A stretch of DNA of 18,162 bases from an uncultured delta proteobacterium (GTDB lineage Bacteria > Myxococcota_A > Polyangia > Polyangiales > Polyangiaceae): the NCBI GenBank assembly GCA_963763745.1, contig CAVXQJ010000001.1:258431-276592 (forward strand), read 5' to 3'. This document shows, piece by piece, positions 1 through 15,530 of this stretch. The translations under genes and the position numbers were made by a program. The notes under the pieces were generated by a model. That model did not search any database, was not told the origin of the DNA, and worked only from the letters and a program-made list of their open reading frames with translations. Within the stretch, counting starts at the first letter, position 1, and every line of letters starts with the position of its first letter.

Positions 1-222
1 GCGCTCGGCGCCACGGCCGAAGAGGTCCCGCGCCACGTACACCTTCCGCTCGTGCGCGACTCGGCGGGCGCGCGCATCTCGAAGCGCACGGCGGGCGGAT
101 GCGTTCGCGCGCTCCGCGAAGGCGGCATCAGCGCACGCGAGATCCTCGAAGTGCTCGCGCGTTCGACGGACGGACGCGCGCCGCTCGTCGTGCCCGCGCA
201 GTGGGCTCGGTTTGGCGCTTAG
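1..222 (+). CDS. gluQ: 3' end (last ~73 codons) of a class-I glutamyl-tRNA synthetase family gene, most likely tRNA glutamyl-Q(34) synthetase (GluQRS); 5' end outside the window
   Basis: Frame 1 from nt 1 reads ALGATAEEVPRHVHLPLVRDSAGARISKRTAGGCVRALREGGISAREILEVLARSTDGRAPLVVPAQWARFGA*. HLPL followed by ISKR is the KMSKS-type signature region of GluRS/GluQRS. Only ~45 aa follow the motif, so there is no anticodon-binding domain, which fits GluQRS better than full GluRS. Stop TAG at 220-222. GC3-rich codon usage. Confidence 0.5.
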   Translation, partial: ALGATAEEVPRHVHLPLVRDSAGARISKRTAGGCVRALREGGISAREILEVLARSTDGRAPLVVPAQWARFGA

Positions 223-1406
223 GTTCGCAGCGCGAGCCACACGCCGACGCCGATGGCAGCCGCGATGACGAGCGCCCACACGAACACGGGCACGCCGCGC
301 GAGGTCTCGGGCTGAACGATGATGGATCCGGTCGTCGAATCGAGTGAGCGGCGCGACGGCGGTCTGCTCGAGGCATGCTTCGACGGCTCGGGCGCGGGAA
401 GCGTCGCTGCGTGGACCATGTCGTCGCTGTGCACGCGCACCATGGGCACGCCGCCGCTGGCGCCGGCCGCGACGCGCGATGGCTTCACCGCGTCGACGTC
501 TTCGGGCGTGGTGCGCGCCGCGGTGATCGCGAGCGCCATCGCGGCGGCAGTCGCGTAGCGATCGCGCGGGTCCTTTGCCATCGAGTGCATGACGACGGCT
601 TCGAGCGCAGGTGTGATCTCGCGGTCGGGTGCGCGCTTGCTTGGTGTGTCGGGATCCTGCGTGAGCTGCGCCGTGAGCACGTTGAGCGGCGTGTTCCCCG
701 TGAACGGAACGCCGCCGGTGAGAAGCTCGTAGAGGATGACGCCCACCGCGTAGACGTCGCATCGCGCGTCGAGCTCGTCGCCGCGTGCTTGCTCCGGCGC
801 CATGTACTCCGGCGTCCCGAACACCATGTTGTGCGCGGTGAGGCCCGTCGTTCCGGTGCCGCCGCCGGTCAGGATCTTCGCCATCCCGAAATCGACGACG
901 AACACTTCGTTTCCATTTTCGAGGATCACGTTCGCCGGCTTCAAATCGCGATGAATCACGCCTTGCGCGTGCGCGGACGCGAGCGCCGCACAAACTTGAA
1001 GCGCGATGTCGAGCGCGCGCTCGAGCGCGAGCGGGCCCTCTTCGCGGAGCAGCTGATCGAGCGGAGGACCCTCGATTTTCGGGAGCGCGATGTAGAGCAA
1101 GCTCGCGCCCTCGCCGCGTGGATCGGGGACCTCGCCGAAGTCGAGGATCGCGCCGAGGTGTGGTCCGCTGAGGCGGCTGAGGATCTTGGCTTCGCGCGTG
1201 AAGCGTCCGCGGATTTGTTTGTCGTAGAGGAGGTGACCGTGAATCACCTTGAGGGCGACGCGCTCGGCTTCCACGTTCGCGTCGCCTTCTTTCGGGATCG
1301 TCTTCGCTTCGTAGACGATGCCGGTGCCGCCCTCGCCGAGCACGCCGCACAGCTCGAAATTTCCGATGACGCGACCGGAGCTGAGCGGCGGCGCGGAAGC
1401 GCGCAT
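219..1406 (-). CDS. Hanks-type Ser/Thr protein kinase, C-terminally membrane-anchored (tail-anchored topology)
   Basis: Minus-strand ORF in the frame of 219..3080; the real start is probably the internal ATG at 1404-1406 (MRASAPPLSSGRVIGNFELCGVLGEGGTGIVYEAK...). Motifs: Gly-rich loop GEGGTG, VALK lysine, HRDLKPANVIL catalytic loop, DFGMAK, GTPEYMAPE. These are followed by a Pro/Ser-rich linker and a single C-terminal TM helix VFVWALVIAAAIGVGVWLAL 3 residues before the stop (TAA, overlapping the gluQ stop by 4 nt). The N-terminal 550 aa of the printed 953-aa ORF are Arg-rich, out of register with the LysM gene, and judged non-coding. Confidence 0.85.
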   Translation of the reverse strand: MRASAPPLSSGRVIGNFELCGVLGEGGTGIVYEAKTIPKEGDANVEAERVALKVIHGHLLYDKQIRGRFTREAKILSRLSGPHLGAILDFGEVPDPRGEGASLLYIALPKIEGPPLDQLLREEGPLALERALDIALQVCAALASAHAQGVIHRDLKPANVILENGNEVFVVDFGMAKILTGGGTGTTGLTAHNMVFGTPEYMAPEQARGDELDARCDVYAVGVILYELLTGGVPFTGNTPLNVLTAQLTQDPDTPSKRAPDREITPALEAVVMHSMAKDPRDRYATAAAMALAITAARTTPEDVDAVKPSRVAAGASGGVPMVRVHSDDMVHAATLPAPEPSKHASSRPPSRRSLDSTTGSIIVQPETSRGVPVFVWALVIAAAIGVGVWLALRT

Positions 1407-1453: not shown

Positions 1454-2368
1454 TCAGCGCGACCAGCGACACGCGTCGCGAATTTTCGGCGACACGTAAA
1501 TCGGATCGAGCGTGGCTGAGGTGTCTTGCTTGTGCCAGTCGTCGCAGGCGGTCGTCGCGAGAGCGCTCTGTTCGAGCGCGACGTACGCCTCGACCAGCGC
1601 GCGGTCGATCGACGCGATCTGCGCGCGCGCGAGCTCCGTCTGCGCGAGGAGGCGGTTGCCGCGCGCGACCGCGTCGATGTAGCGACCCGCGCGGACGTCC
1701 GCGAGCAGCATCGGGATCTCGCCGCCCGCCTTCCGCTGCTGCGCCATCGTCGAGCCACCGCTCTCGCGTTTGGCGCGCGTGTCCTCGCCCGCCGCTTCCG
1801 CGCGTCCCACATCGGTGAGGTCGAGGTTCGAAATCGGAACGAGCACGACCTCGCCACGGAGGAGCTTCCAATCTTTCTTCCCGTTGTACGAGTCGATCTC
1901 CCACGCGCGGTTCGCGTCGCCGAGGTAGCGCCGCGCGATGGCGGTCGTCGTGTCGCCTTCGGCGGCGATGTACGTCAGCACGTACGGCACGCGAATTTCT
2001 TGTCCGGGCGAGGGTGCGATCCACGCGAGCGCGTCGTTCACGCGTGCGAGCGCGTCCGCGCGTTTGTCGTCGCCGAGCCATTCGCGCGCGAGGCTCGGCC
2101 ACGTCGCGTGCTCGGCTGCGCGGTGATAGTCGCACGCGGGGATCTGCAGGTGCATGCCGGGCACGATCGCGCTGCCGCCTTGCACGTCGAGCGCGTTCGC
2201 GCCCGCGAGGAGCCCCTCTTTCGTCGCGTCGCCATAGATGTGCTTCGCGATGTCCGCGAGCGACTCTTTCGGCCGAACGACGTGAACGAACGCCTGCGCC
2301 TCGGGCGCGGACGAGGACTCGAGCGCGAGCGCGAGCGCGACGAACGAAAGCGCGTACCTCGGATTCAT
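1454..2368 (-). CDS. Secreted protein with two LysM-like peptidoglycan-binding domains and a C-terminal helical region
   Basis: In the frame of ORF 1454..2575; the likely start is ATG 2366-2368 (MNPRYALSFVALALALESSSAPEAQA, signal peptide). Two LysM-like segments: VHVVRPKESLADIAKHIYGDATKEGLLAGANALDVQGGSAIVPGMHLQIP and IRVPYVLTYIAAEGDTTTAIARRYLGDANRAWEIDSYNGKKDWKLLRGEVVLVPI. It ends 47 nt upstream of the kinase start, so co-transcription is likely. Confidence 0.65.
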   Translation of the reverse strand: MNPRYALSFVALALALESSSAPEAQAFVHVVRPKESLADIAKHIYGDATKEGLLAGANALDVQGGSAIVPGMHLQIPACDYHRAAEHATWPSLAREWLGDDKRADALARVNDALAWIAPSPGQEIRVPYVLTYIAAEGDTTTAIARRYLGDANRAWEIDSYNGKKDWKLLRGEVVLVPISNLDLTDVGRAEAAGEDTRAKRESGGSTMAQQRKAGGEIPMLLADVRAGRYIDAVARGNRLLAQTELARAQIASIDRALVEAYVALEQSALATTACDDWHKQDTSATLDPIYVSPKIRDACRWSR

Positions 2369-2393: not shown

Positions 2394-3059
2394 ATGAATT
2401 CGGCGGACTTCACCGCACAAGCCGTGCGCCTCCACGATCGATATTTGCTCGAGGTGGTGGAGCCGCTCGGTCTTTGTCCGTGGGCGCGGCGCGCGCGGCT
2501 CGATGGACGAACGCGCCAGCACGTCGTCCTCGACGACGCCGAAGACGCCGCGCGCGCGAACACGACGAAGATCATCGCGACGTGGGCGGCAAACGACGTC
2601 GTCGACGTCGGCTTCGTGATTTTCCCTCGCCTCGAAATCGCTCGCCCCGCGTTCGATCGCTTCGTCGCGAGCGTGACGGAGCACGAGTCGTCGATTCACG
2701 CCGTTGGCTCCGTGCCGTTCGTGATGGCCGCGTTCCATCCACGCGCGCGCGCCGACACGAACACGCCCGAGCGTCTCATCCCGTTTTTGCGGCGCACACC
2801 CGACCCGTGCATTCAGCTCGTGAGGTCGAAGGTGCTCGACGCCGTCCGCGCGAACACGCCGCAAGGCACGAGCTTCGTCGACGCCGCCACGTTCGACTTC
2901 GACGTCGAGGGTAAAAGCGCACGCGACGAAATCCCGCTGCGCGAGCGCATCGCGCGCGCGAACCTCTCCACGATCACGAAGCTCGGTTTGCCCGAGCTCG
3001 AACGCCTCCTCGACGACATCCGCGCCGACCGCGATCGCACGTACGCCGCGCTCACCTGA
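2394..3059 (+). CDS. Conserved hypothetical protein (CPWA-motif family, possibly DUF1415-like)
   Basis: 221-aa ORF with coding-like GC3 bias and no low-complexity Arg runs. Motifs LGLCPWARRARL and FVMAAFHP resemble a small conserved bacterial family I recall with a CPFA/CPWA motif; I cannot verify this without a search. It is divergent from the LysM gene (only 25 nt apart) and its 3' end overlaps the convergent FG-GAP gene by 8 nt. Confidence 0.6.
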   Translation: MNSADFTAQAVRLHDRYLLEVVEPLGLCPWARRARLDGRTRQHVVLDDAEDAARANTTKIIATWAANDVVDVGFVIFPRLEIARPAFDRFVASVTEHESSIHAVGSVPFVMAAFHPRARADTNTPERLIPFLRRTPDPCIQLVRSKVLDAVRANTPQGTSFVDAATFDFDVEGKSARDEIPLRERIARANLSTITKLGLPELERLLDDIRADRDRTYAALT

Positions 3060-4704
3060 ACGTGAACGCACCGCCAGCACCGCCCGCCGAAGCGTTGCTC
3101 GGATCGCCGTTGATGCCCGTCGCGTTGCTTGGGTCGCTCACGCCGCCGACGGCGAGCGCCGCGGCGTTGTTCGTGATCGCAACGCTCAACCCGAAATTGT
3201 CAGCGTGTGCGAACGACGATTTCACGTACGCCGTTTGTTGCCACACGCTCGCGACCGGCGTGAAGGTGTAGACGGCTCCGGCATTCGCGACCGACGTATC
3301 GCCTTGTCCGGGCGACGTGTTGTTGACGCCGGTCGCTGCGCTCGTCTCGCCCGTGCTGCCGACGGCCAGCGTGTTGCCGTCGACCGACAGCGAGACACTC
3401 GTGCCGAAGGCGGCCGATCCGCGTGTGTTTGACGACTTCACGTATGCGGCTTGTGTCCACGTCGAGCCCGCTCGCGTGAAGAGATACGCGGCGCCCGAGT
3501 TGTTCGCGCTCGTGTCGCCTTGTCCGGGGCTCGTGTTGTTCACGCCGGTTGCGCCGCTCGATTCTCCGGAGCTTCCGACGGCGAGCACCGTTCCGCCAAC
3601 GCCACCGAGCGCGACGCTCTTTCCGAAGAGCGCGTTGGTGCGCGTGTTCGACGCTTTGATGTACGCGGTCTGCGACCAGATGCTCGACGACTTCGTGAAG
3701 ACGTACGTCGCGCCCGCGAATGCCGCGGACATGTCGGTCGAGTTGATGCCGACGCCCGTGGCGCCGCTCGCTTCGCCCTCCGAGCCCACCGCGAGCTCGG
3801 TGCCGTCGTTCGAGAGCGCGACGCTCCACCCGAAGCGGCCACCCGCTTGCGTGTTCGAGGGCTTCACGTAGTGGGTCTGGGTCCAGTTGCCGCCGCTGTA
3901 TGCGTAAAGATAGGCCGCACCCGCGAAGGAGAAGTTCGCGTTGGCTGCTCCGCCGGAGCCCGTGGTCACGCCCGTGTCGGACGCCGTCTCGTCGATCGCG
4001 CCAACCGCGGCGGTGTTGCCGTCACCCGACATCGCGACGCTGTAACCGAACTGCGCGCTCTGCTGGATGTTCGATGCCTTGAACGGACCGTCGGTTTGCG
4101 ACCAAGTCTGGCTGAGACCGTTGCCGTTCGCGCTGAAAAAGTAGACAGCGCCCGATCCCACTTGGGTCGTGCTCTCGCCGCGCGCGCCGACGATCATGTG
4201 GCTCCCATCCGACGCTGATGCCGAAGTTCGCATTCGCCGTCGTGTTCGACGCTTTGATGTAGGCGATTTGAGACCACGCGTTGTTCACGCGCGTGAAGAC
4301 GTACACCGCGCCCGCTGCGGACTTGCTCGTGTCGCCTTGACCAGGGTTCGTGTTGTTCACGCCGGTCGCGCCGCTGGTCTCTTGCGACGAGCCGATCGCG
4401 AGCGTGTTGCCATCGGCCGAGATCGCGATGCTCTGTCCGAAGCCCGCGCCGGCGCGTGTGTTCGACGCCTTGATGTAAGCGTCGGCGACCGAAACGTGCG
4501 GTGGGGGTGCGGCGTCGGCGTCACCGCCGTCGTTGTTGCTTGATCCGTCCGTGCCCGAGTCGCTCGTCGTGACATCGGCGAGTGCCGTGTCCGAGGTTGC
4601 GTCGGCAGCGGCGTCAGGACCGGGCACGACACTCGTGTCGCCGACGCAGGCGCTCAGCGCACCACCAACAACCACGAGCGAAAGAAGAAATCGTTTGAAC
4701 GCCA
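3052..4704 (-). CDS. FG-GAP/integrin-alpha-like beta-propeller repeat lipoprotein (single gene split by an apparent 1-nt frameshift near 4215-4225; printed as ORFs 4022..4759 and 3052..4233)
   Basis: The start ATG at 4702-4704 is preceded by a perfect SD AGGAGG (4709-4714 on minus). It opens MAFKRFLLSLVVVGGALSAC with lipobox LSAC. It is followed by an Asp/Ser-rich linker, then at least 7 repeats of about 70 aa with consensus GAAYVFT..WSQ.AYIKASNT....FG.SVA.S.DGNTLAVGS..E.SGATGVNNTSPGQGDTS. The repeat phase continues exactly across the frame change: ..ANANFGISV in one frame, SDGSHMIVGARGE.. in the next. Nucleotide-level internal repeats occur at about 3290, 3520 and 4330. Confidence 0.75.
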
Positions 4705-4708
4705 TCCG

Positions 4709-4714
4709 TCCTCC
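4709..4714 (-). promoter_or_regulatory. Shine-Dalgarno AGGAGG for the FG-GAP lipoprotein gene
   Basis: On the minus strand aggaggACGGatg; a perfect SD 4 nt from the ATG at 4704. The printed (frameshifted) kinase ORF would read through it, which supports the corrected kinase stop at 4746. Confidence 0.6.
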
Positions 4715-6096
4715 TAAGTCACGAGCCAGCATCGACACCTTAACATCATTTCTCCGCAACGCTCGCGTCGCGGTCGCGATCGCCGCCGACGTCCATCGTC
4801 ACGTCGAGCGTCTCCGTCGCGCCCGCGGTGATCGACACGCGGCGCGTTTGAGGCGGCGCGGTCGGGTGCGTGAATTTCGACGAAGTGCACGCCGGGCGCG
4901 AGCGGGATCGCGCGCGCGACCGGCGTGACGGCTGCGCGCTGACCATCGATTGCGACCTCCGCCCACGGCGTCGCGAGGACGCGCAAGAAACCCGGCTTCG
5001 CGGGAAGAAGCGGACCCTCGGTCGCGGCGGACGCTTGCTCCGCGCTGCGATCGGTCGCGTGGATCACGGCGAGCGCGGACACGAGCGCCGCACCGAAGAG
5101 CGCGAAGCTCCATGGCGACATCGTCAGCGGACGGCGCGGCTCGCTCGCGCGCACGAGCGACGGCACTTCGCCCGACACCAAACGCGCCGACGCGAGCGCG
5201 CCTCGCACGAGCTGCCGCATCGGAAGCTCGGTGCGCGAACGCACGAACTCGGTGAGCTCCTCGGCGACCACGTCCGCGGACATCGGCCTGTCCGCTGGAT
5301 GCTTCTCGATGCAGCGCATGACGACGCGCTCGAGCGCGCGCGGAACGTCCGGCGCGCGCTGGCGCAGCTGCACGGCCGGGCTCGTTCGCGACGCGTGCGC
5401 GGGCGCGCGCTTCTCGCCGGGTCGATCGAACGGACGCACGCCGCACAAGAGTTGATACAAGACGACGCCGAGCGAGAAGAGATCGCTCGGCGCGCTCGCC
5501 GCTTCGCCGAGCAGCTGCTCCGGCGCCATGTACGCGGGCGTTCCGAACGCGCCGGGCTGCGCAGTTCCTCGTGCCGGCGTCTCGTTGTCGAACGCGGGGA
5601 TTGGCTCGTCCGCCGAAGGAAGCCGCTCGCGATGCGCGATGCTGAAGTCGACGATCTTCACCTCGCCTTGTCGCGACAAGATCACGTTCGCCGGTTTCAC
5701 GTCGCGATGAATCACGCCGCGCTCGTGCGCGTGCGCGAGCCCCTCCGCCACCGCCGCGCCGATCGCCGCGACCATCTCGGCGCGCAGCTTCGGCTTCTTC
5801 GCGAGGAGCTCCGAGAGCGAGAAGCCCGAGATGTACTCGAGCACGAGATACATCTGGGTCTCCGACTTCACGTAATCGAGGAGCAAGACGATGTTCGGAT
5901 GCGACAGTCCCGAGAGCACACGCGCTTCGCGTTCGAGCTGCGTCGCGAACGTCGATGACGGCGGGATCGTTCCCTTCAACGCTTTGATCGCGACCTTGCG
6001 ACCAAGCGGCTCTTGCGACGCGAGATACACCGTGGCGATCGCGCCCGAGCCGAGCTCGGAGATCGTTTCGTAGCTTCCGAATCGCGGCAGCTCCAT
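4714..6096 (-). CDS. Hanks-type Ser/Thr protein kinase with one TM helix and a C-terminal extracytoplasmic PEGA domain (3' end frameshifted; the corrected stop would be at 4746)
   Basis: MELPRFGSYETISELGSGAIATVY.., VAIKALK, HRDVKPANVIL, DFS (DFG variant), GTPAYMAPE. TM helix WSFALFGAALVSALAVIHA, then a PEGA-like segment PGFLRVLATPWAEVAIDGQRAAVTPVARAIPLAPGVHFVEI. At about 4873-4880 (aattt) the PEGA consensus continues in the +1 frame (THPTAPPQTRRVSITAGATETLDVTMDVGG.. stop at 4746), while the printed frame runs into an Arg-rich tail that overlaps the SD of the next gene. The start ATG (6094-6096) overlaps the gpmI stop in ATGA. Confidence 0.85.
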   Translation of the reverse strand: MELPRFGSYETISELGSGAIATVYLASQEPLGRKVAIKALKGTIPPSSTFATQLEREARVLSGLSHPNIVLLLDYVKSETQMYLVLEYISGFSLSELLAKKPKLRAEMVAAIGAAVAEGLAHAHERGVIHRDVKPANVILSRQGEVKIVDFSIAHRERLPSADEPIPAFDNETPARGTAQPGAFGTPAYMAPEQLLGEAASAPSDLFSLGVVLYQLLCGVRPFDRPGEKRAPAHASRTSPAVQLRQRAPDVPRALERVVMRCIEKHPADRPMSADVVAEELTEFVRSRTELPMRQLVRGALASARLVSGEVPSLVRASEPRRPLTMSPWSFALFGAALVSALAVIHATDRSAEQASAATEGPLLPAKPGFLRVLATPWAEVAIDGQRAAVTPVARAIPLAPGVHFVEIHAPDRAASNAPRVDHRGRDGDARRDDGRRRRSRPRRERCGEMMLRCRCWLVT

Positions 6097-7632
6097 CAGC
6101 GTGTGAGCAGCGGAATGCCCGTCATCGCGGCGGGCTGAGGAAGACCGAGGAGCGCGAGCATCGTCGGCGCGACGTCGCAGATGCGTCCGCCGCTTCGAAC
6201 GTGCGCGCCCGCGTCGGCGTCGTTGACGTAGAGGAGCGGCACGGGGTTCAGCGTGTGCGCGGTGTGCGGCTCGCCCGTCGCGGGATCTTTCATGAGCTCG
6301 CAGTTTCCGTGATCCGCCGTGATGATCACCGCGCCGCCTTTCTTCCGCGCTGCATCGACGATCGCGCCCACTTGCGCATCGACTGCTTCGACCGCGTGAA
6401 TCGCCGCGTCGAGCACGCCCGTGTGGCCCACCATGTCCGGGTTCGCGAAATTCACGAGCACGAAATCGAATCGATCCGATTCGATCGCGCGAACGACCGC
6501 TTCACCAACGCCCTTTGCGCTCATCTCGGGTTTCTTGTCGTACGTCGCGACGTCCTTCGGCGATGGGATCATCGCGCGCTCTTCGCCCGCGAACGGCTCC
6601 TCGCGACCGCCGTTGAAGAAGTACGTCACGTGCGCGTATTTCTCGGTCTCCGCGCAACGGAACTGCGTGAGCCCGGCGCGCGCAATCACTTCGGGGAAGA
6701 TGTCCGTGAACGTCTGTTTCGGAAACGCGATGGGCAAACCGAACGACGCGTCGTACGTCGTCATGCATCCATAGCGACCCGCGAACGGCGCGCCGGCATG
6801 GGGTGCGCGCGGGAAGCCGTCGAACTTTTCGATCGCGAGAGCGCGCGTGAGCTCGCGCGCACGGTCTGGACGAAAGTTGCAGTGCTGCGCGGAGTCCTTT
6901 CCGATCTCGACCCCCGCGTAATCGCCGACGACGAACGGCTCGACGAACTCGTCCGTCTTGCCCGCAGCGATCGACGCTTCGATTCCAGAAACCGCGCTCT
7001 CGTGGCGCGGGCCGAGCGCGAAGACGATCGCGTCGAATGCTTTTTGAACGCGCTCCCAACGGTTGTCGCGGTCCATCGCCCAGTAGCGCCCGCTCACCGT
7101 TCCGATTCGACCTTTTCCCGCGAGATGCTTCTCGAGCTCGGCGATGTACCTCGGCGCCGTCTTCGGTTGCACGTCGCGCCCGTCCAAAAATGCATGCATG
7201 ATGCAACTAACGCCGCGCGCGTGCGCCGCGTCGATGACGGCCATGATTTGCGTGAGGAGCGAGTGGACGCCGCCGTCGGAGCAGAGGCCGAAGAGGTGGA
7301 GCTTTCCGCCGCTCGCCTTGGCTTGCTCGATGCGATCCGAGAGGACCGCGTTCTTGCCGAGCGAGCCATCGAACACCGCGTTGTCGATGCGCGAGATGTC
7401 CATCATCGCGATGCGACCCGCGCCGAAGTTCAAGTGGCCGACTTCGCTGTTTCCCATTGGCCCGGCGGGAGGCCGACGTCGGGCCCGCTCGTGCCGATGA
7501 GCCCGTGCGGATTTTCGAGAAGAGCTCGGCGAGGCGCGGCGCCTTCGCGAGTCGCACGGCGTTGTCGGCCGCCTCGGCGCGCTCGCCGAAGCCGTCCAAA
7601 ATGACGAGCACGAGTGGCCGCGGACGTTTCAT
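6096..7632 (-). CDS. gpmI: 2,3-bisphosphoglycerate-independent phosphoglycerate mutase (iPGM); reading frame broken twice near the 5' end by 1-nt homopolymer deletions
   Basis: The N-terminus MKRPRPLVLVILDGFGERAEAADNAVRLAKAPRLAELFSK (ATG 7630-7632) is in the frame of ORF 7207..8733. The next conserved block NPHGLIGTSGPDVGLPPGQ is in a second frame. MGNSEVGHLNFGAGRIAMMD onwards is in the third frame (ORF 6096..7457) and runs through canonical iPGM motifs to the C-terminus (ITADHGNCE..). The junctions fall at the T-runs gattttcg (7511-7518) and cattgg (7455-7460). Confidence 0.9.
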
Positions 7633-7658
7633 CGCGGCGAAAATATCATCAATCGGCA

Positions 7659-8764
7659 TCAAAACGGGAGGACGTCGGTTGGTATCGCGCGCGACTCGAA
7701 CGTTCCGTCGCCGAGCTGACCGCTTTGGTTGCTGCCCCAGCACACGATGCGCTCGTCCGAGAGAATGGCGCACGAATGAAACGAGCCGCACGCGATGGCG
7801 GTCGCGCCGCTCGCAATCGCAGTGACGGGCTTGGTCGACGAAGCGGTCGTCCCATCGCCGAGCTGGAACGTGCTGTTCGCGCCGAAGCAAACGACGGCGC
7901 CCGTCGCGAGGAGCGCGCACGTGTGCGAATCGCCCGCGCAAACGTCCACGACTCCGCTCGTCAAGCTTCCGTCGCCGAGCTGGCCGGCTGCGTCGAATCC
8001 GAAGCATGTGAGCGCGCCGGCCGCGACGATGCACGTGTGTGTGCCGCCGAGCGCGATCTTCGACGGCGCGCTCGCGTTCGTTTTCGTCGGCACACAAACG
8101 GTCGACGTCTGGCCGTCGCCGAGCTTTCCGCTGTCGTCGTCTCCCCAGCACATGAGGCCGCTCGTCGTGATCGCGCACGCATCGAACTCGAGACCGAGCG
8201 CGATCGATGTCGCGCCCGTGACGCCGTTCGCGACCGGCGTGAGCGCGTTCGTGATGTCGTTGTTTCCGAGCGCGCAATATCCGCCCTGACCGAAGCAGCG
8301 CACGCTTCCATCGAGCGCCACCGCGCACGTCGTTCCGTAACCCGCCGCGATCGCCGCAGACGGCGGGAGTGCGATGGGCGTGGTGATCGCGTGCGACGCG
8401 TTCGTGCCGTCGCCGAGCTGCCCGAATGCGTTTTCGCCGAAGCAATACGTCGCGCCGGCCGACGTGATCGCGCACGCGTGATCGACGCCGACGGAGAGCG
8501 CCGTCACCGCGGCGAGCGAAAACGCGACGGGCTTCGGTTGATTTCCTCCGAAGAGTTGACCGAAGCACGCGAGCGCGCCGCTCGAACGCACCGCGCAAGT
8601 CGTCGCCGCGCCGGCGCTGACGAGCGGCGTTGCGTTCGGCGGGCGAGCCGCTTCTGCGGAGAGCGCGTCGTGCGACGCGTCTTGTGCCCCATCGAGCTCG
8701 GTGCGCGATCCACACGCGACGAACAGGACGCACACGCCGACGTGCGCGGCTCTCGATTCTGACA
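7659..8764 (-). CDS. RCC1-repeat (regulator of chromosome condensation-like) beta-propeller lipoprotein
   Basis: ORF 7659..8852; the preferred start is GTG 8762-8764 (VSESRAAHVGVCVLFVACGS, lipobox-like FVAC), because ATG 8852 would overlap the divergent rnhA. There are about seven RCC1 repeats with the hallmark C(F/W)G.N..GQLGDG (CFGENAFGQLGDG, CWGDDDSGKLGDG, CFGFDAAGQLGDG, CFGANSTFQLGDG, CWGSNQSGQLGDG). It ends 26 nt upstream of gpmI. Confidence 0.8.
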
Positions 8765-8781
8765 CTCCACCATAGTATCCA

Positions 8782-9453
8782 ATGTCGATGCCGTGGAAGG
8801 AGGCCTCGCTACGCGGACAGCGCGTGCTCGCGCGCGTGAAGGCCGACGGCACGCTCGACGAAAAAGAGAGCCGCGTGGAGATTCGCTATCGCGAAACCGA
8901 TGGTCGCGCGTACCACGCGCGCGCGGCGAACCTCGTGGTCGCCAAGGACGCGAAGGTGATGTCCGACGACACGTGCGCCCCCGCGGACAAACCGAAGGCG
9001 AAGACGGCCAAAGCGCCCGAAATAAACCATGCAGACTACAAGGATTCGTGGATCGCCTACACGGACGGCGCGTGCACGGGAAATCCCGGGCCCGCGGGGA
9101 GCGGGACGATCGTCATCGCGCCCAGCGGAAAGATCGCCGAGTCGTATGCGTACCTCGGCGAAGGGACGAACAACGTCGCCGAGCTGACGGCGATCGAGAA
9201 GGCGCTCGAGCGAACGCCGCGCGAGGAGTCGCTCGTGCTCCACACCGACAGCCAGTACGCGATCGGCGTTCTCACGAAGGGATGGAAGGCGAAGGCGAAC
9301 ACCGACCTCATCGCGCGCATTCGCAAAGCGCTCCACGGCCGGCGCGTGCGGTTCGTGTATGTGCCGGGTCACGCGGGCGTTCCGATGAACGAGCGCGCCG
9401 ACGAGCTCGCGCGCGAAGCGATCAAGACGCGCTCGAGCTCGCGCGCGGAGTGA
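8782..9453 (+). CDS. rnhA: Ribonuclease HI with an atypical ~90-aa N-terminal extension
   Basis: The C-terminal 140 aa match the RNase H fold signature: IAYTDGACTGNPGPAGSG, GTNNVAELTAI, LHTDSQYAIGVLTKGWKAKAN, VPGHAGVPMNERADELAREA (the DEDD catalytic residues are in place). The N-terminal region MSMPWKEASLRGQRVLARVKADGTLDEKESRVEIRYRETDGRAYHARAANLV is coding-like but does not resemble the canonical hybrid-binding domain. Confidence 0.9.
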   Translation: MSMPWKEASLRGQRVLARVKADGTLDEKESRVEIRYRETDGRAYHARAANLVVAKDAKVMSDDTCAPADKPKAKTAKAPEINHADYKDSWIAYTDGACTGNPGPAGSGTIVIAPSGKIAESYAYLGEGTNNVAELTAIEKALERTPREESLVLHTDSQYAIGVLTKGWKAKANTDLIARIRKALHGRRVRFVYVPGHAGVPMNERADELAREAIKTRSSSRAE

Positions 9454-9457
9454 CGAC

Positions 9458-10495
9458 GTGAAGACGCGCGATCGAGTGATTTCCGTCGCGCTCGTGGGTG
9501 GGATCATCGCGTTCATTTGGTGGGGTGGGTCGCATTTGCGAAACGTGACGGCCGTGGCGGACGCCGCGCCGAGCGCGAGCGGATCGTCGTCAGCGCATCC
9601 CGTTGCGAATGCGAGCGCGAGCGCATCGGCGAGCGCGTCCGCATCGGCGAGCGTCGCGATCGCGGACGCCGCGCCGCCGCCGATTTCCGGCGCGTGCAAG
9701 ACGATGAACGACGCATCGACGAAGAAGCTCGACGACGCGAGGACAGCACGCCCGTGCACGTCGTCGTTCGATCTCGCGATGCTCGGATGCCGGACGTCGC
9801 AGAACGGCGCGACGTGGGGCCTGCGCGTCGACGACGTCGTCGATCTCGGAACGAGCGACGCAGGCGACTGCGACACGGGATGGCTCGTGCGCCTCGTGCA
9901 CCTCGACGTGAACGGCGCGGAGAACGCGATGGTGCCCGGCCTGTCGTCGACGAAGCTCGCGCATACGTACGACGTGGATGCGATCACGCGGCTCGAGGGC
10001 GTCGCGTTCTTCGATTGGGACGGCGACGGCGAGGATGAAGTCTTCGTTCACTCGGTGCGTCCGTTCGAGAGACGGAGCGGCGTGTGGACGTTCAAGAGCG
10101 GCGATGGCGGCTCGCGCGTCGCGCCGTATGCGCCCGCCGCGCCGTTCGATGCGTCCTCCGTTCGCGACGTCGACGGCGACGGGCGCCCCGATTTGATCGT
10201 GAAGCTCCCCTTCGGCTCGCACGAATTCGTCGCGCACTCGCTCTCCGACGGAACGTTCACCGCGCACGACGCGATCGCCGTCGCGTTCGCCGAGAAGCAA
10301 TGTCCGACCGATCCCGCGCTCGATCTCGCGACGATCGACGACGCGACCGCCGAAGCCATCGCGTGCAAGCTCGTCTGGGGTCACGACCCGAAGGCGATCG
10401 ACGCCGACGTGACGAAGGCGTGCGGCCAAAAAGGGCTGTGCCCCGCGTGGACGGCTCGAATCGCGCGATCGAAGGCGCCGCTTTCGCTGCGCTGA
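9458..10495 (+). CDS. Membrane-anchored hypothetical protein with a Ser/Ala/Pro-rich linker and FG-GAP-like Ca-binding loop motifs
   Basis: GTG start 4 nt after the rnhA stop. N-terminal signal-anchor helix VISVALVGGIIAFIWWGG, then the low-complexity linker SASGSSSAHPVANASASASASASASASVAIADAAPPP, then a Cys-containing domain with DxDGDG loops (FFDWDGDGEDEVFV, VRDVDGDGRPDLIVKL) typical of FG-GAP/VCBS repeats. No confident family assignment is possible. Confidence 0.6.
   Translation: MKTRDRVISVALVGGIIAFIWWGGSHLRNVTAVADAAPSASGSSSAHPVANASASASASASASASVAIADAAPPPISGACKTMNDASTKKLDDARTARPCTSSFDLAMLGCRTSQNGATWGLRVDDVVDLGTSDAGDCDTGWLVRLVHLDVNGAENAMVPGLSSTKLAHTYDVDAITRLEGVAFFDWDGDGEDEVFVHSVRPFERRSGVWTFKSGDGGSRVAPYAPAAPFDASSVRDVDGDGRPDLIVKLPFGSHEFVAHSLSDGTFTAHDAIAVAFAEKQCPTDPALDLATIDDATAEAIACKLVWGHDPKAIDADVTKACGQKGLCPAWTARIARSKAPLSLR
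9608..9655 (+). repeat. Imperfect (GCGAGC/GCATCG)n microsatellite encoding (Ala-Ser)n
   Basis: gcgaatgcgagcgcgagcgcatcggcgagcgcgtccgcatcggcgagc, with 6-nt and 12-nt periodicity, inside the linker of the 9458..10495 protein. Confidence 0.7.
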
Positions 10496-10517
10496 ACGGC
10501 GCGCTAGAAAGCACGTC

Positions 10518-11309
10518 ATGCCGTCGATCTTTCGGCCCGGCTTGTTCGAGAATCGCGTCGCCATCGTCACGGGTGGCGGGAGCGGGATCGGCTTCGCCAT
10601 CGCGCGCGATTTGGGGATGCTCGGCGCGAAGGTCGCCATCGCGAGCCGCAAACAAGAGCGCATCGACGCGGCCAAGGCCGAGCTCGCGAAGGCGGGCGTC
10701 CACGTTTTCGGCGCCGCGTGCGACATCCGCGAGACCGAACAGGTCGCCAAGCTCGTCGATACGGTGATGAAGGAGCTCGGGCCCATCGACGTCCTCGTGA
10801 ACAACGCGGGCGGGCAATTTCCGACCGCCGCCGAGAACCTCACGACGAAAGGTTGGGACGCGGTCATCCGCAACAACCTCAGCGGCACGTTCTACATGAC
10901 GCAAGCCGTCGCGACGAAGTCGATGATCCCGCGTAAAAAAGGGCGGATCGTGAACATCATCGCGAACGTCGCACGCGGATTTCCCGGGATGATCCACACG
11001 GGCGCGGCGCGCGCGGGCGTCGAGAACATGACGAAGACGCTCGCGGTGGAGTGGGCGCAGTACGACATCCAAGTGAACGCGGTCGCGCCGGGCGTGATTC
11101 GATCGAGCGGCGTCGATCAGTACCCGCCCGAGATCGTCGAGATGAGCCGGCAGCGGACGCCCGCGAAGCGTCTCGGCACGGTCGACGAGGTGAGCGATTT
11201 GGTGGTCTACCTGGCGAGCGACGCGGCGTCGTTCGTGACGGGCGAGACGTGGTACATCGACGGCGGCGCGCATTTGTGGGGCGACACGTGGATGATTCCA
11301 GACCGGTGA
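10518..11309 (+). CDS. SDR-family NAD(P)-dependent oxidoreductase (enoyl/dienoyl-CoA reductase-like)
   Basis: Rossmann motif VAIVTGGGSGIGFAIA, NNAGG, and an SDR active-site region with GAARAGVENMTKTLAVEW; length 263 aa. The stop TGA 11307-11309 overlaps the GTG start of the next gene. Confidence 0.9.
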   Translation: MPSIFRPGLFENRVAIVTGGGSGIGFAIARDLGMLGAKVAIASRKQERIDAAKAELAKAGVHVFGAACDIRETEQVAKLVDTVMKELGPIDVLVNNAGGQFPTAAENLTTKGWDAVIRNNLSGTFYMTQAVATKSMIPRKKGRIVNIIANVARGFPGMIHTGAARAGVENMTKTLAVEWAQYDIQVNAVAPGVIRSSGVDQYPPEIVEMSRQRTPAKRLGTVDEVSDLVVYLASDAASFVTGETWYIDGGAHLWGDTWMIPDR

Positions 11310-13234
11310 CACCGCCTCCCGAGGCGAGCAAGACGACCTTCAAGGAGAAGGTGCGCGCGCTCGGCTCGCGCGTGTGGGCGAAGCTCCGCGGTTGGTGCGT
11401 GACGTACTTCATCGACGACCCGCTGACGTTCGTCGCCGCGCTCGTTCCGCTGTGTTTCTTGTCGATTGCACTCTACACGCGTCACCCGCGGACGAATTTC
11501 ATCTTCGACGAACAAGAGGCGCTGCTCGCGAATCCGTACGTGCGCTCCGTCGCCGATCCGCAATCGCATCTGCATTGGCTCGACGCATTCCGCCGCGACT
11601 TTTGGGGGCTCCCGCACGATCGCACGATCGGATCGTATCGGCCGCTTCCGGATCTCGTGTGGCGCGCGTTCTGGGGCGTCGGCGCGCGCGAGCAGAGCCC
11701 GTTCTTGCATCACTGGGTGAACGTGCTCCTCCACGGCGTGAACGGCGCGCTCGTGACGGTGATCGGGCTTCGCCTGACGAAGGATCGCTTGATCGCGTGG
11801 CTCGCGGGCGGCGTGTTCGTCGCGGCGGCGGTCGTGACGGAAGCGGTGAGCGGCGTCGTCGGTCTCGCGGACGTGCTCGGCGCGCTCGGCGCGCTCCTCG
11901 CGCTGTGCTCGCTCGCGCTTCCGATGTGGGCGATGCCGTTCGCGGTCGCCGCATCGACGCTCTTCGGTTTGTACTCGAAGGAGAGCGCGCTCTGCATCGT
12001 GCCGATGGTGCCGTTCGCGGCGCTCTTCGTCTCGGACCTCACGCACCCGAAGCGCCCGATGCGCTGGGTGCGTTGCGCGCTCGCGGCGATCGCCACGACG
12101 GCCGCGTTCGTCTTCTACGTGGAGCAACGCCGCCGCATGTTCCCCGCGACGCTCCCGCCGGATCTCTCCATCGAAGCAAACCTCGGCAAACCGTGGGCGA
12201 CGCGCTTCTACCACTCTCTCCTTCGTTGGTATGCGCAGCCGATCTTGCCGAAGGATCCGCTGAACAACCCGCTCGTCGACGCGACGGGCCCGCAGCGCGT
12301 CGCGGCAGGTTTCCGCGTGTACTCGCGCGGCATCGGCGAAGTTCTCTTTCCGTATCACTTGTCCGGCGACTACTCGGCGCCGCAAGAACCCATTCCGTCG
12401 CGGCTCGTTTTTCCGGAGAGCATCACGGGCGCGCTCGCGCTGCTCGGCCCGATCGTTGGCGCGCCGATTTTGGGCTGGATGGGCGTGCGAAAGAAGAAGC
12501 CGCTCTACGCGATCGCGGCCGTCGCGATGATGTGGATCGTCGTCAGTTATTTTCCGGTGTCGAACATTCCCATCGTGCTGCCGACGGTGCGCGCGGAGCG
12601 CTTCTGGTACTTCCCGGTGATCGGCACGAGCTTCTTGCTCGCGTTCTTCTTCGCGTGGGTGCTTCGCAGGACGCGCGCGCGAAACCGCGCGTGGCTCGGC
12701 GTCGCCATCGTCGCGGGATTTTTTCTGTGGCAATCGATCGCCGCGCGCGCGCACGCCAACGACTACACCGACGATTTGGTTTTCTGGAACGCGACGCGCT
12801 TCGCCGTTCCGAACAGCGCGAAGGCGCACCTCAATTACTCCGTGATGAAAGGCGCGCGCGGCGATCTCGAAGAGCGCCGAAAAGCCAACGTGCGCGCTCT
12901 CGAGCTCGCCCCGAATTGGCCCATGGCGAACATCTACCTCGGCGACACGCTCTGCCGCATGCACCGCGCGCAAGAAGCCTGGCCGCACTACAAACGCGGC
13001 TTCGAGCTCGCGCCCGGCGATCCGAATTTGATTTCGCTCGCGCTCCAATGCTTGTGGGACGAAAAATATTATTCGACCGTCGCCGACGAGCTCGCTGAGA
13101 TGGGCGCGGCGCAGCCCGGCTCGTGGCTCGACTTCTTGCAGCGCGACATGTCCGACCACGGCGAAGAGCACAACGGCGTCGATCCGAAATACCGCCCGCG
13201 CGGATACAACGAAGGCCCGAAGAACGAAAACTGA
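11306..13234 (+). CDS. Polytopic membrane GT-C glycosyltransferase-like protein with C-terminal TPR repeats (PMT/TMTC-like, DUF1736-type)
   Basis: In the frame of ORF 11051..13234, but the portion upstream of 11306 overlaps the SDR gene and is Arg-rich. The proposed start is GTG 11306-11308, which overlaps the SDR stop in GTGA. About 10 predicted TM helices. The first loop carries FIFDEQEALLANPYV (the DE motif used by GT-C PMT-type enzymes) and FWG....YRPL (a DUF1736/TMTC-like motif). C-terminal TPR-like helices (ANVRALELAPNWPMANIYLGDTLCRMHRAQEAWPHYKRGFELAPGDPN). Confidence 0.7.
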   Translation: MTPPPEASKTTFKEKVRALGSRVWAKLRGWCVTYFIDDPLTFVAALVPLCFLSIALYTRHPRTNFIFDEQEALLANPYVRSVADPQSHLHWLDAFRRDFWGLPHDRTIGSYRPLPDLVWRAFWGVGAREQSPFLHHWVNVLLHGVNGALVTVIGLRLTKDRLIAWLAGGVFVAAAVVTEAVSGVVGLADVLGALGALLALCSLALPMWAMPFAVAASTLFGLYSKESALCIVPMVPFAALFVSDLTHPKRPMRWVRCALAAIATTAAFVFYVEQRRRMFPATLPPDLSIEANLGKPWATRFYHSLLRWYAQPILPKDPLNNPLVDATGPQRVAAGFRVYSRGIGEVLFPYHLSGDYSAPQEPIPSRLVFPESITGALALLGPIVGAPILGWMGVRKKKPLYAIAAVAMMWIVVSYFPVSNIPIVLPTVRAERFWYFPVIGTSFLLAFFFAWVLRRTRARNRAWLGVAIVAGFFLWQSIAARAHANDYTDDLVFWNATRFAVPNSAKAHLNYSVMKGARGDLEERRKANVRALELAPNWPMANIYLGDTLCRMHRAQEAWPHYKRGFELAPGDPNLISLALQCLWDEKYYSTVADELAEMGAAQPGSWLDFLQRDMSDHGEEHNGVDPKYRPRGYNEGPKNEN

Positions 13235-13240
13235 GAAGGA

Positions 13241-14683
13241 CTACTTCGAGGTGGCGGCGACGAGCGTGGTGGAGGTCCAGTAGACGCTCGTGGCGTCGAC
13301 GGCGACGAAGCGCAGGTCGCCTTGGTTCGTGGCCAGCGTCTTCGAGATGCCGCCGCTGACGGGGAGGCGATGGATGCTGCCGTCCGTCGCGCCCCAGTAA
13401 AGCGCAACGCCGTCCGTGACGAGGTTCGTTGCGATCTTCTCGTTCGTTGCGAGCGTGGTGGGCTGTGCGGTGCCCGTCTTCGGGTGCGACTGCACCTCGA
13501 GGCCCAGGCCGATCCAGTAAATCGAATTTGCGTCCTGCGCGATTTCCATGGCGTCCACGACTTCGAACGTCTTCGCGGTCGCGTTCTGCTGATCGATCGG
13601 CGCGGACCAGATCTCACCGGTGAAGTCGGCGAGGTAGATCGTGGTCGAGTCGACGGCGGCCGAGAGCGGATCGTTCAGCGACGTGATCGTCACGGGTGCG
13701 GCCGAGCCGTCCGTGACGACGCGACCGGCGAGCGCGCCCGTCGAGTAGTACGCGTAGCCTGCGCTCGTCGTCAGCGTCTGCACGCCCGACAACGTCGCGA
13801 GCGTCGATACGGTGCCGCCCGTGAGAAGCTGCGATTGAATCAGCGTGTTGACGTGGAGCCACACGATGCGCCCCGAGTCGATGGCGAGCGCGGTGGCTTG
13901 GTTGTCGGCGTAGACGAGCTGGGCGGTGCCACCGCCAATGGGGACCTTCTCGATTCCGCCGTTCGTGCTCGATTGATTGACGAAGTAGACGAAGCTCGAA
14001 TCGACGGCGAGCCCGCCGAGCTGCCCGGTCGCGTAGGTGATGATGGGACACACGCCTGCCGTGCACGTCCCGTTGCCGCCGCACACGCGGTTGCAGACGC
14101 CGCAGTTCCCGCTGCTCGTTTGCAAATTCGCTTCGCACCCGTTCGAGCCGACGCCGTCGCAGTCGGAGAACGGCGCGATGCATTGCGAGCTGCACTGACC
14201 CTTCGAGCAAATCGGCGTCTCGTTCGCGCCGGTGGTGCTGCATGGCGTGTTGCAGTCGCCGCAGTGTTGCACGTCGTTCTGCGTGTCGATGCAGTCCGTG
14301 CCGCACGTCGTGAGTGGGCAAACGCACGTGCTGTTCGAGCAGAGCGATCCGTGGCTGCACGCGTTCCCGCACGAGCCGCAGTTGGTCGTGTCGGAGGAGA
14401 GATCCGCGCAGAACGCGGCGCCCGACGTCCCGCACGCGACCTCGGATTTGCCGGGGCACGTCGTGCAAAACGATTCGGAGCAGAGCTGGTTTTGCGCGCA
14501 CGCATTTCCACACGAGCCGCAGTTGAAACGATCCGATGACACATCGACGCACGCGCCGTTGCAGACCGTCAGCGGCCCCGCGTCGCAGCTCGAGCCCGCG
14601 TCGTCGGTGTACGTGACGTCATAGGTCCGACACGCGCCGAACAGCACGACGATCGCCACCACCGAATTTCGCACCCACGCCAC
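13241..14683 (-). CDS. Secreted Cys-rich repeat protein (Myxococcus-type CGSCGNAC repeats) fused to a YWTD-like beta-propeller
   Basis: Signal peptide MAWVRNSVVAIVVLFGAC. Six or more Cys-rich modules (FNCGSCGNACAQNQLCSESFC, TNCGSCGNACSHGSLCSNSTCVC, QHCGDCNTPC, GNCGVCNRVCGGNGTCTAGVC), then propeller blades marked by VYFV, IVWL, IYLAD, IYWIG, LYWGATDGSIHRLP, VYWTS. It is convergent with the TMTC-like gene, 6 nt apart. Confidence 0.75.
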   Translation of the reverse strand: MAWVRNSVVAIVVLFGACRTYDVTYTDDAGSSCDAGPLTVCNGACVDVSSDRFNCGSCGNACAQNQLCSESFCTTCPGKSEVACGTSGAAFCADLSSDTTNCGSCGNACSHGSLCSNSTCVCPLTTCGTDCIDTQNDVQHCGDCNTPCSTTGANETPICSKGQCSSQCIAPFSDCDGVGSNGCEANLQTSSGNCGVCNRVCGGNGTCTAGVCPIITYATGQLGGLAVDSSFVYFVNQSSTNGGIEKVPIGGGTAQLVYADNQATALAIDSGRIVWLHVNTLIQSQLLTGGTVSTLATLSGVQTLTTSAGYAYYSTGALAGRVVTDGSAAPVTITSLNDPLSAAVDSTTIYLADFTGEIWSAPIDQQNATAKTFEVVDAMEIAQDANSIYWIGLGLEVQSHPKTGTAQPTTLATNEKIATNLVTDGVALYWGATDGSIHRLPVSGGISKTLATNQGDLRFVAVDATSVYWTSTTLVAATSK

Positions 14684-14804: not shown

Positions 14805-15431
14805 ATGAAAAAGCTCTTCCTCTTCGCCGCTCCGATCGCCGCGCTTGCGTGCTTCGCGTGCTTCGTGTCGCCGCCATCTTCGAGCACGTCGTCCACCACG
14901 ACGGGTCAGGCGCTCGCGACGTCGCTCGCGTGCGCGTCGTGTCATGGCTCCGACTTCTCGGGATCGGAATCGCCGATCGCGCCGGGCGTCTACGCCGCCA
15001 ACCTCACGCCCGACATCGCGACGGGTCTCGGCTCGTGGAGCGACGACGACATCACGCGCGCGATTCGCACCGGTCAAGACGATCAAGACAGCGCGCTGTG
15101 CGCGAAGATGCCGCGCTTCTCCACGCTCGCGGATGATCAAGCGAGCGCGCTCGTCGCGTACCTGCGATCGCTTCCAGCGATCGCACACGACATCCCGGAG
15201 AGCGAGTGCGACGCGCCACCCGATCTCGACGACGGAGGACCCGGCGACGGCGGCGTCGACATCGTCACGGACGACGCGCCTTCGTGCGAAGGCTTCGCCG
15301 ACCCCAACACGACGGCGACGTGTCACGCGTGCTCGAGCGGCCAAGCGTCTTGTCAGCACAACGGCTGCTTCGGCGGATACTTCTGCGACCTAGCAGCGCT
15401 GCATTGCGTCCCAAAGCCGAGCGGATGTTGA
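14805..15431 (+). CDS. Secreted or lipoprotein c-type cytochrome (class I) with a C-terminal Cys-rich extension
   Basis: Signal peptide MKKLFLFAAPIAALAC. Heme-binding CASCH (CXXCH). Met ligand in MPRF. Class I cytochrome c tail LADDQASALVAYLRSLPA. A C-terminal ~70 aa follows with 8 Cys (SCEGF..TCHACSSGQASCQHNGCFGGYFC..HCVPKPSGC). Confidence 0.8.
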   Translation: MKKLFLFAAPIAALACFACFVSPPSSSTSSTTTGQALATSLACASCHGSDFSGSESPIAPGVYAANLTPDIATGLGSWSDDDITRAIRTGQDDQDSALCAKMPRFSTLADDQASALVAYLRSLPAIAHDIPESECDAPPDLDDGGPGDGGVDIVTDDAPSCEGFADPNTTATCHACSSGQASCQHNGCFGGYFCDLAALHCVPKPSGC

Positions 15432-15443
15432 GACGCGCTGGAC

Positions 15444-15463
15444 GTGAACGCGTGCGCGTTCAC
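15444..15463. promoter_or_regulatory. 20-bp inverted repeat GTGAACGCG-TG-CGCGTTCAC between the cytochrome c stop and the czcA start
   Basis: Perfect 9-bp arms with a 2-nt spacer, 13 nt after the cytochrome c stop and 68 nt before the czcA ATG. It is followed by CCCCGAAAAAATAGGG, an A-run rather than a T-run, so it is not a canonical plus-strand intrinsic terminator. It could be a regulator binding site for the efflux gene or an atypical terminator. Confidence 0.3.
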
Positions 15464-15530
15464 CCCGAAAAAATAGGGCGATTTGCGATCGCGCGACTCG
15501 GCGTTCTAGTTGCATGTAGCGCGCCAGCTC

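Follow-up and report, generated by a model that had tools for sequence, protein, structure and literature searches.

Pairing of gpmI with a receptor kinase gene across Polyangiales, and a frame-broken copy in an uncultured member of the order

Myxobacteria encode hundreds of Hanks-type serine/threonine kinases, and to our knowledge almost none of them has a known substrate. The receptor kinases PknB, StkP, and Stk1, cell-wall sensors with metabolic substrates, combine a cytoplasmic kinase domain with one transmembrane (TM) helix and an extracytoplasmic sensor that carries PASTA repeats. In Myxococcus xanthus, the kinase gene pkn4 lies in an operon with pfk, the gene of its substrate (PMC2887360, PMC6213207, PMC1262709), and the pkn4-pfk region is the only kinase region found to be syntenic across seven myxobacteria (PMC2887360). 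Here we describe an 18,162-nucleotide stretch of DNA from an uncultured delta proteobacterium of the Polyangiaceae (assembly GCA_963763745.1, contig CAVXQJ010000001.1, positions 258,431 to 276,592; hereafter the window), in which gpmI, the gene for cofactor-independent phosphoglycerate mutase (iPGM), runs directly into the gene of a Hanks-type kinase, STK1. The gpmI-STK1 pair appears to be a further case of the known kinase/glycolytic-enzyme operon type, with a different enzyme. As in the pfk-pkn4 (pktD1) system, a glycolytic gene is followed by a Hanks kinase gene and the synteny is kept among relatives, a comparison that rests on gene arrangement and published descriptions rather than on the sequence of Pkn4. 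Unlike that system, the present pair involves iPGM rather than phosphofructokinase and belongs to Polyangiales/Sorangiineae, its kinase is a membrane receptor whose ectodomain is PEGA-like, and the ancestral surroundings include a LysM protein and a second kinase. While Pkn4 phosphorylates its enzyme, phosphorylation of iPGM by STK1 is a prediction. The original prediction for this locus professed to know of no description of such an arrangement, and this held: in the open literature that we searched, including that on myxobacteria and Sorangium, no gpmI-Ser/Thr kinase pair is described, and the precedent recovered was pfk-pkn4.

The same prediction presented an operon-like string of four co-oriented genes, in the order RCC1-repeat lipoprotein, gpmI, kinase, and FG-GAP lipoprotein. 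All four do lie on the minus strand, and each identity is supported by Pfam. On balance, we lean towards a smaller unit, a two-gene operon gpmI-STK1 found throughout Polyangiales/Sorangiineae and extended ancestrally by the LysM protein and the second kinase, STK2. The pair and its signals are placed as follows.

6096..7632, minus strand: gpmI, encoding iPGM, with Pfam matches to Metalloenzyme (E 2e-78) and iPGM_N (E 8e-65)
4746..6096, minus strand: STK1, encoding a Hanks-type Ser/Thr kinase, with a Pfam match to Pkinase (E 2e-51)
6094..6098, minus strand: TGATG junction of the two genes, read from the sequence
7640..7645, minus strand: -10-like hexamer TATTTT, 7 nt ahead of the gpmI ATG, with a putative promoter function

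We scanned the iPGM sequence, repaired at the frame breaks discussed below, against one genome per species and obtained 80 loci, 25 of Polyangiales type and 55 from other taxa. A full-length STK1 orthologue lies directly downstream of gpmI in 20 of the 25 Polyangiales loci (Labilithrix, Sorangium, and metagenome-assembled genomes, MAGs) and in none of the 55 loci from other taxa, including Anaeromyxobacter, Myxococcaceae, and Geobacter. Loci reached via the kinase contain the same pair in Pendulispora rubella and in several large MAG contigs. The pair thus spans Labilitrichaceae, Polyangiaceae (Sorangium), and Pendulisporaceae, three families of Polyangiales/Sorangiineae, and this co-oriented adjacency of kinase and enzyme gene persists among them at synonymous saturation. 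With respect to the question of conservation raised alongside the original prediction, synteny divides the string: the four-gene order RCC1-gpmI-STK-FG-GAP is not conserved in related genomes, while the gpmI-kinase pair is.

The overlap of the gpmI stop with the kinase start at 6098-6094 is as first described, though not in the 4-nt ATGA form given for it. The junction reads cgcTGATGgag, with the stop TGA at 6098-6096 and the start ATG at 6096-6094, so that a single nucleotide is common to both. An overlap of 1 nt is also present in two relatives (L001 and L082), the 4-nt form (ATGA or GTGA) occurs in seven others (L002, L009, L016, L017, L018, L020, and L021), and nearly all gpmI/STK1 junctions are either overlaps of 1 or 4 nt or gaps of at most 39 nt. 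Moreover, this junction is the most stable of the cluster, since Sorangium (L014/L015), L017, L019, L023, and several MAGs keep gpmI-STK1 alone where the LysM and STK2 genes are missing. With the coupling conserved across three families, a functional link between gpmI and STK1 is well supported.

The signals around the pair are consistent with joint expression. Among 31 Polyangiales loci, a TAnnnT hexamer starts at -16 to -12 before gpmI in 21 (6-10 nt before the start codon), with only three occurrences elsewhere in the 45-nt gpmI upstream regions of all 31. This positional enrichment suggests that gpmI is read as a leaderless transcript across the order, from its own promoter, which in the window would lie downstream of RCC1. 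A scan of the window for sigma-70 consensus found no promoter, and a scan against Rfam was likewise empty. Ahead of STK1, neither the window nor its relatives show any Shine-Dalgarno-like sequence; since the STK1 start lies on or within the gpmI stop and has no ribosome-binding site of its own, its translation is probably coupled to termination on gpmI. The overlapping stop and start, and the lack of any terminator-like site in the spacers, suggest indirectly that gpmI and STK1 are co-transcribed.

Once repaired, the gpmI product has 512 aa (gene span 7632 to 6096, 1537 nt), with a Metalloenzyme core and an inserted iPGM_N domain as is characteristic of iPGM. It is collinear over its full length with solved iPGMs (5vpu_A, E 6e-145 over residues 6-511; 1ejj, E 6e-138), and in alignment to 5vpu it carries the catalytic serine motif GQMGNSEVGH and the N-terminal Asp metal ligand, in LDGFG. 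Compared to these solved enzymes, the frame in the window is broken twice just upstream of the catalytic serine, and the longest intact open reading frame (ORF), 453 aa from M59, would be without the N-terminal metal ligand.

STK1 has 449 aa after repair and more than 120 full-length orthologues at 50-90% identity. Its kinase domain (~6072-5260) has the Gly-rich loop, the VAIK Lys (5985-5983), the alphaC Glu, HRDxKxxN (HRD at 5709-5701), and APE, with the DFG motif reading DFS (5649-5641); the Lys, Glu, HRDxKxxN, D-F, and APE are invariant across 66 orthologues. The nearest solved kinase domains are those of S. aureus Stk1/PknB (4eqm, E 8e-39), StkP, and M. tuberculosis PknB and PknA; the layout of STK1 is that of PknB, StkP, and Stk1. 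A single TM helix (5115-5056) is followed by a domain of ~70 aa with 12 positions invariant among orthologues, within which a PEGA-like beta-sandwich extends over ~4992-4788. While the PASTA kinases carry repeats, this ectodomain is a single PEGA/transthyretin-like sandwich; STK1 further differs from them in the separate LysM protein encoded nearby and in its hosts, Gram-negative myxobacteria. The locus had been described as encoding a transmembrane PEGA kinase. The TM helix is present, and the window protein falls short of the Pfam PEGA (PF08308) gathering score (11.7 bits against a cut-off of 20.8, E 0.25). Matches to PEGA at E <= 0.01 were found in 7 of 66 orthologues (best E 2.4e-5), and an AlphaFold2 model built on the orthologue alignment predicts a seven-strand ectodomain sandwich (predicted local distance difference test score 92-97), a small all-beta fold that matches domains of the transthyretin/carboxypeptidase-regulatory type and, at a lower score, the periplasmic domain of the P. 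aeruginosa kinase PpkA, solved together with a partner protein, RtkS (9k1u). Searched as a profile against the sequences of the PDB, the ectodomain had no significant match. At the level of the predicted fold, the PEGA label seems a fair one.

Beyond the pair, many Polyangiales have the order gpmI-STK1-secreted LysM-like protein-STK2, with genes often overlapping and rnhA divergent upstream, and the LysM gene follows STK1 directly in L003-L009, L020, L025, and L084-L086. This order is, as far as comparative gene order can tell, the ancestral four-gene cluster. Only in the window's subclade are STK1 and LysM separated by insertions, namely the divergent DUF1415 gene and one further gene. The corresponding features in the window are these.

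1454..2368, minus strand: gene for a secreted protein of ~304 aa with two LysM-like segments (Pfam LysM)
219..1406, minus strand: STK2, encoding another Hanks kinase, anchored in the membrane at its C-terminus (Pfam Pkinase; synteny)
2394..3059, plus strand: DUF1415 gene (Pfam; synteny with L001, L081, and L082)
8782..9453, plus strand: rnhA, encoding RNase H (Pfam RNase_H), the divergent gpmI neighbor kept in relatives (synteny)

Based on this conserved anatomy, we propose that gpmI is transcribed, probably as a leaderless mRNA, from the -10 element 7 nt before its ATG, and that STK1 would be translated by termination-reinitiation where its start overlaps the gpmI stop, coupled to gpmI. STK1 would then reside in the inner membrane and expose its PEGA-like domain on the outer side, where it would most likely detect a cue from the periplasm or the cell wall, perhaps together with the LysM protein and STK2. 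In a final step, STK1 would phosphorylate cytoplasmic targets, among which the analogy with M. xanthus pfk-pkn4 makes iPGM the prime candidate; as a substrate iPGM is plausible, though we rate this last step, taken alone, as less likely than not. It is unlikely, taken as a whole, that the locus represents a clade-wide module in which an envelope cue read by the PEGA-like ectodomain (perhaps with LysM) leads to phosphorylation of iPGM, gating the step between 3-phosphoglycerate and 2-phosphoglycerate and the supply of phosphoenolpyruvate, and that this unit has just been knocked out in the present organism.

On either side of the pair lie the two genes for surface propeller proteins.

7659..8765, minus strand: RCC1-repeat lipoprotein gene, with GTG at 8765 and stop at 7661-7659; intact (Pfam RCC1, RCC1_2, and WD40_RLD)
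3052..4705, minus strand: FG-GAP_2 (integrin-like) lipoprotein gene (Pfam FG-GAP_2, E 2e-32)
4709..4715, minus strand: Shine-Dalgarno sequence AGGAGGA, 3 nt ahead of the FG-GAP ATG, read from the sequence

Both products are putative lipoproteins, as had been proposed, each with a lipobox-type signal peptide recognized by inspection of the sequence (RCC1 ...VCVLFVAC/GS; FG-GAP ...VVVGGALSAC/VG). The RCC1 gene had been taken to start at 8764, one position from its GTG; its spacer to gpmI is 26 nt, as first measured (stop 7661-7659 to ATG 7632), and that between the kinase stop (4748-4746) and the FG-GAP ATG (4705) is 40 nt rather than 41. In the nearest relatives (L081, L082/83, and L001), whose kinases are 85-90% identical, both propeller genes are missing, and rnhA stands 18-87 nt from gpmI. 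A comparison of spacers with L081, L082, and L001 places the RCC1 insertion in this short divergent spacer between rnhA and gpmI. RCC1 has a TACTAT sequence 6 nt before its GTG, and it has apparently captured the ancestral gpmI promoter. Where the window has FG-GAP, these relatives have after STK1 either nothing recognizable or a gene for a 239-245-aa membrane protein (L081 8347-9084; L082 8344-9063) with a signal peptide and C-terminal TM segments, which overlaps STK1 by 4 nt in L081 and follows it after a 5-nt gap in L082. This protein belongs to no Pfam family and resembles nothing in the window; that its gene might be the N-terminal part of FG-GAP was rejected for want of similarity. Full-length FG-GAP homologues (P0122 and P0124) have 67-70% identity, and paralogues of the FG-GAP_2 type are very numerous, with 7952 matches at E <= 1e-20. 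Judged by gene order, the RCC1 and FG-GAP genes are recent insertions on either side of the conserved unit and outside it.

It is therefore highly improbable that the four genes form one functional operon in which both surface propellers work with the kinase, as the original prediction had modeled them. Co-orientation, the 26- and 40-nt spacers, and the lack of terminator-like sites in the spacers (all matches fall inside coding sequence) would agree with such a unit. As a functional unit it is left unsupported by the conservation record, in which neither propeller gene is at this locus in any of 87 related loci, as well as by the -10-like element that gpmI retains downstream of RCC1, by the strong Shine-Dalgarno sequence that FG-GAP has of its own, and by the membership of FG-GAP_2 in so large a family; the absence of conservation largely refutes it, and the eye-catching propellers are incidental. 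The main rival to a biochemical tie between kinase and enzyme is that STK1, with LysM and STK2, forms an envelope-sensing module merely co-expressed with iPGM, with STK1 staying behind gpmI for steady low expression via a housekeeping promoter and translational coupling. We rate this as a real possibility, short of an even chance. Several observations weigh against the two-gene reading or its extension to iPGM, and some of these favor co-expression directly. The conserved partners, a secreted LysM-like protein and a second kinase, suggest envelope signaling rather than glycolysis. No Ser/Thr column in the alignment separates kinase-linked from unlinked iPGMs, which leaves iPGM with no kinase-linked phospho-acceptor signature, and eight clade-specific iPGM columns are also present in Polyangiales loci without the kinase. 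The phosphoserine of the enzyme comes from the substrate it acts on, and no priming phosphorylation is required; together with the missing Ser/Thr column, this leaves unsupported the earlier rationale that a phosphoserine intermediate makes a coupled kinase a plausible regulator. In the window's subclade (the window, P0001, P0002, P0009, and P0024), Ser stands in place of the glycine of DFG, whereas more distant orthologues have DFG itself. The adjacency has been lost in five of the 25 Polyangiales loci, the kinase being absent in L011, L012, L013, and L057 and displaced in L022. Kinase genes are, moreover, very abundant in these genomes, at ~1 in 30 genes in Sorangium, and a published caution advises against reading too much into proximity (PMC2887360). 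Against co-expression alone, gpmI and STK1 stay adjacent even in loci that lack LysM and STK2, this adjacency survives synonymous saturation in three families, and the myxobacterial precedent of pfk-pkn4 ties a glycolytic gene to its kinase. A suggestion made earlier, that the surface proteins and kinase form a sensory module on the gpmI promoter, fares well as to a module and poorly as to its members, LysM and the second kinase being conserved rather than RCC1 and FG-GAP. We continue to favor the gpmI-STK1 operon.

A further point against this operon, at least in the present organism, is that gpmI, STK1, and FG-GAP as sequenced cannot give full-length proteins; these three genes are not single ORFs, and only RCC1 is intact, a condition that had been overlooked. 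In gpmI, one base is missing near 7512 and another near 7458, just before MGNSEVGH, such that three frames are needed; a DNA alignment shows the extra base at both sites in four relatives. Programmed frameshifting in gpmI was considered and rejected, as relatives are plainly in-frame at both sites. STK1 changes frame at ~4875-4878 through one extra base relative to L001, which places its C-terminal 42 residues in another frame. In FG-GAP, the change at 4210/4211 is an 11-nt deletion relative to P0122, P0124, and its own repeat register, with a repeat spacing of 175 nt across the deletion as compared to 207-219 nt. At this break (4207-4213, minus strand), homologues read FGxxxALSSDG and the window FGISV/DG, which is not a homopolymer miscall. 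A homology-free phase plot of G+C content at third codon positions (GC3) switches only at these breaks, and in none of ~ten other window genes.

The frame-breaking indels reflect either errors in the assembly or an operon that was inactivated very recently. The ratios of nonsynonymous to synonymous substitution rates (dN/dS) between the window and L081, L082, and L001 are 0.13-0.22 for gpmI and 0.15-0.19 for STK1; these match intact relatives and resemble those of neighboring genes, with no sign of relaxed selection. Both genes have thus been under purifying selection for nearly the whole divergence, and the indels are either very recent or artefacts. That the breaks are real, and that the gpmI-STK1-FG-GAP unit was inactivated very recently, has in our estimation almost an even chance. 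In this scenario, a first lesion in gpmI would end the coupled translation of STK1, decay downstream would follow, and another phosphoglycerate mutase would substitute. Three consecutive co-oriented genes hold all four indels and ~ten others hold none, a clustering for which a rough post-hoc estimate under a uniform rate is (4.5/17.5)^4 ~0.004, and the 11-nt FG-GAP deletion fits slippage between short GTCG repeats and is atypical of base-calling error. Redundancy exists in the group as well, in that Sorangium is reported to carry two iPGM copies (PMC2964296). Conversely, besides the unrelaxed dN/dS, three of the four indels are single-base and the two gpmI deletions are 55 nt apart, the first gpmI deletion and the extra base of STK1 lie in short A runs, L001, a long-read-style MAG, is frameshifted in a gene that is intact in the window, and errors would also cluster at a variable locus if coverage fell locally or strains were mixed. 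If real, the indel pattern is the expected trace of a polar knock-out in a translationally coupled operon, and a knock-out of the whole unit would in itself argue, on genetic grounds, for expression of the three genes as one unit. In either case, annotation of this locus calls for frameshift-aware gene calling.

If the gpmI-STK1 operon is borne out, it would be the second operon-encoded kinase/glycolytic-enzyme pair in myxobacteria after pfk-pkn4. As a second conserved operon of this kind, in the other major myxobacterial lineage, it provides a concrete and testable substrate hypothesis, GpmI, for an orphan receptor kinase that is clade-wide. The defined module (gpmI, PEGA kinase, LysM protein, and second kinase) is accessible in the culturable Labilithrix luteola DSM 27648, Sorangium, and Pendulispora.

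Several minor observations were made in the window and its relatives. In L022, a Polyangiaceae MAG, the STK1 orthologue is displaced 3.8 kb from gpmI by an ABC-transporter insertion; an opposite-strand ABC-transporter pair and another gene occupy 9611-13435 between the two, illustrating one route by which adjacency is lost. In L001 (MAG MFD01872.bin.1.328), the nearest relative in the genome collection, the homologue of the window's intact Stig1-like gene (13241-14683) carries a frameshift at ~2230-2255, which indicates that assemblies of this kind carry sporadic indels. A 902-aa ORF at 15390-18098 on the minus strand has a coding-like GC3 phase and no Pfam match. On the plus strand, 9458-13234 encodes a 345-aa FG-GAP_3-like protein, a short-chain dehydrogenase/reductase (SDR), and a conserved protein of ~660 aa without a Pfam family, a block that is syntenic beside rnhA across Labilithrix-like MAGs and Pendulispora.

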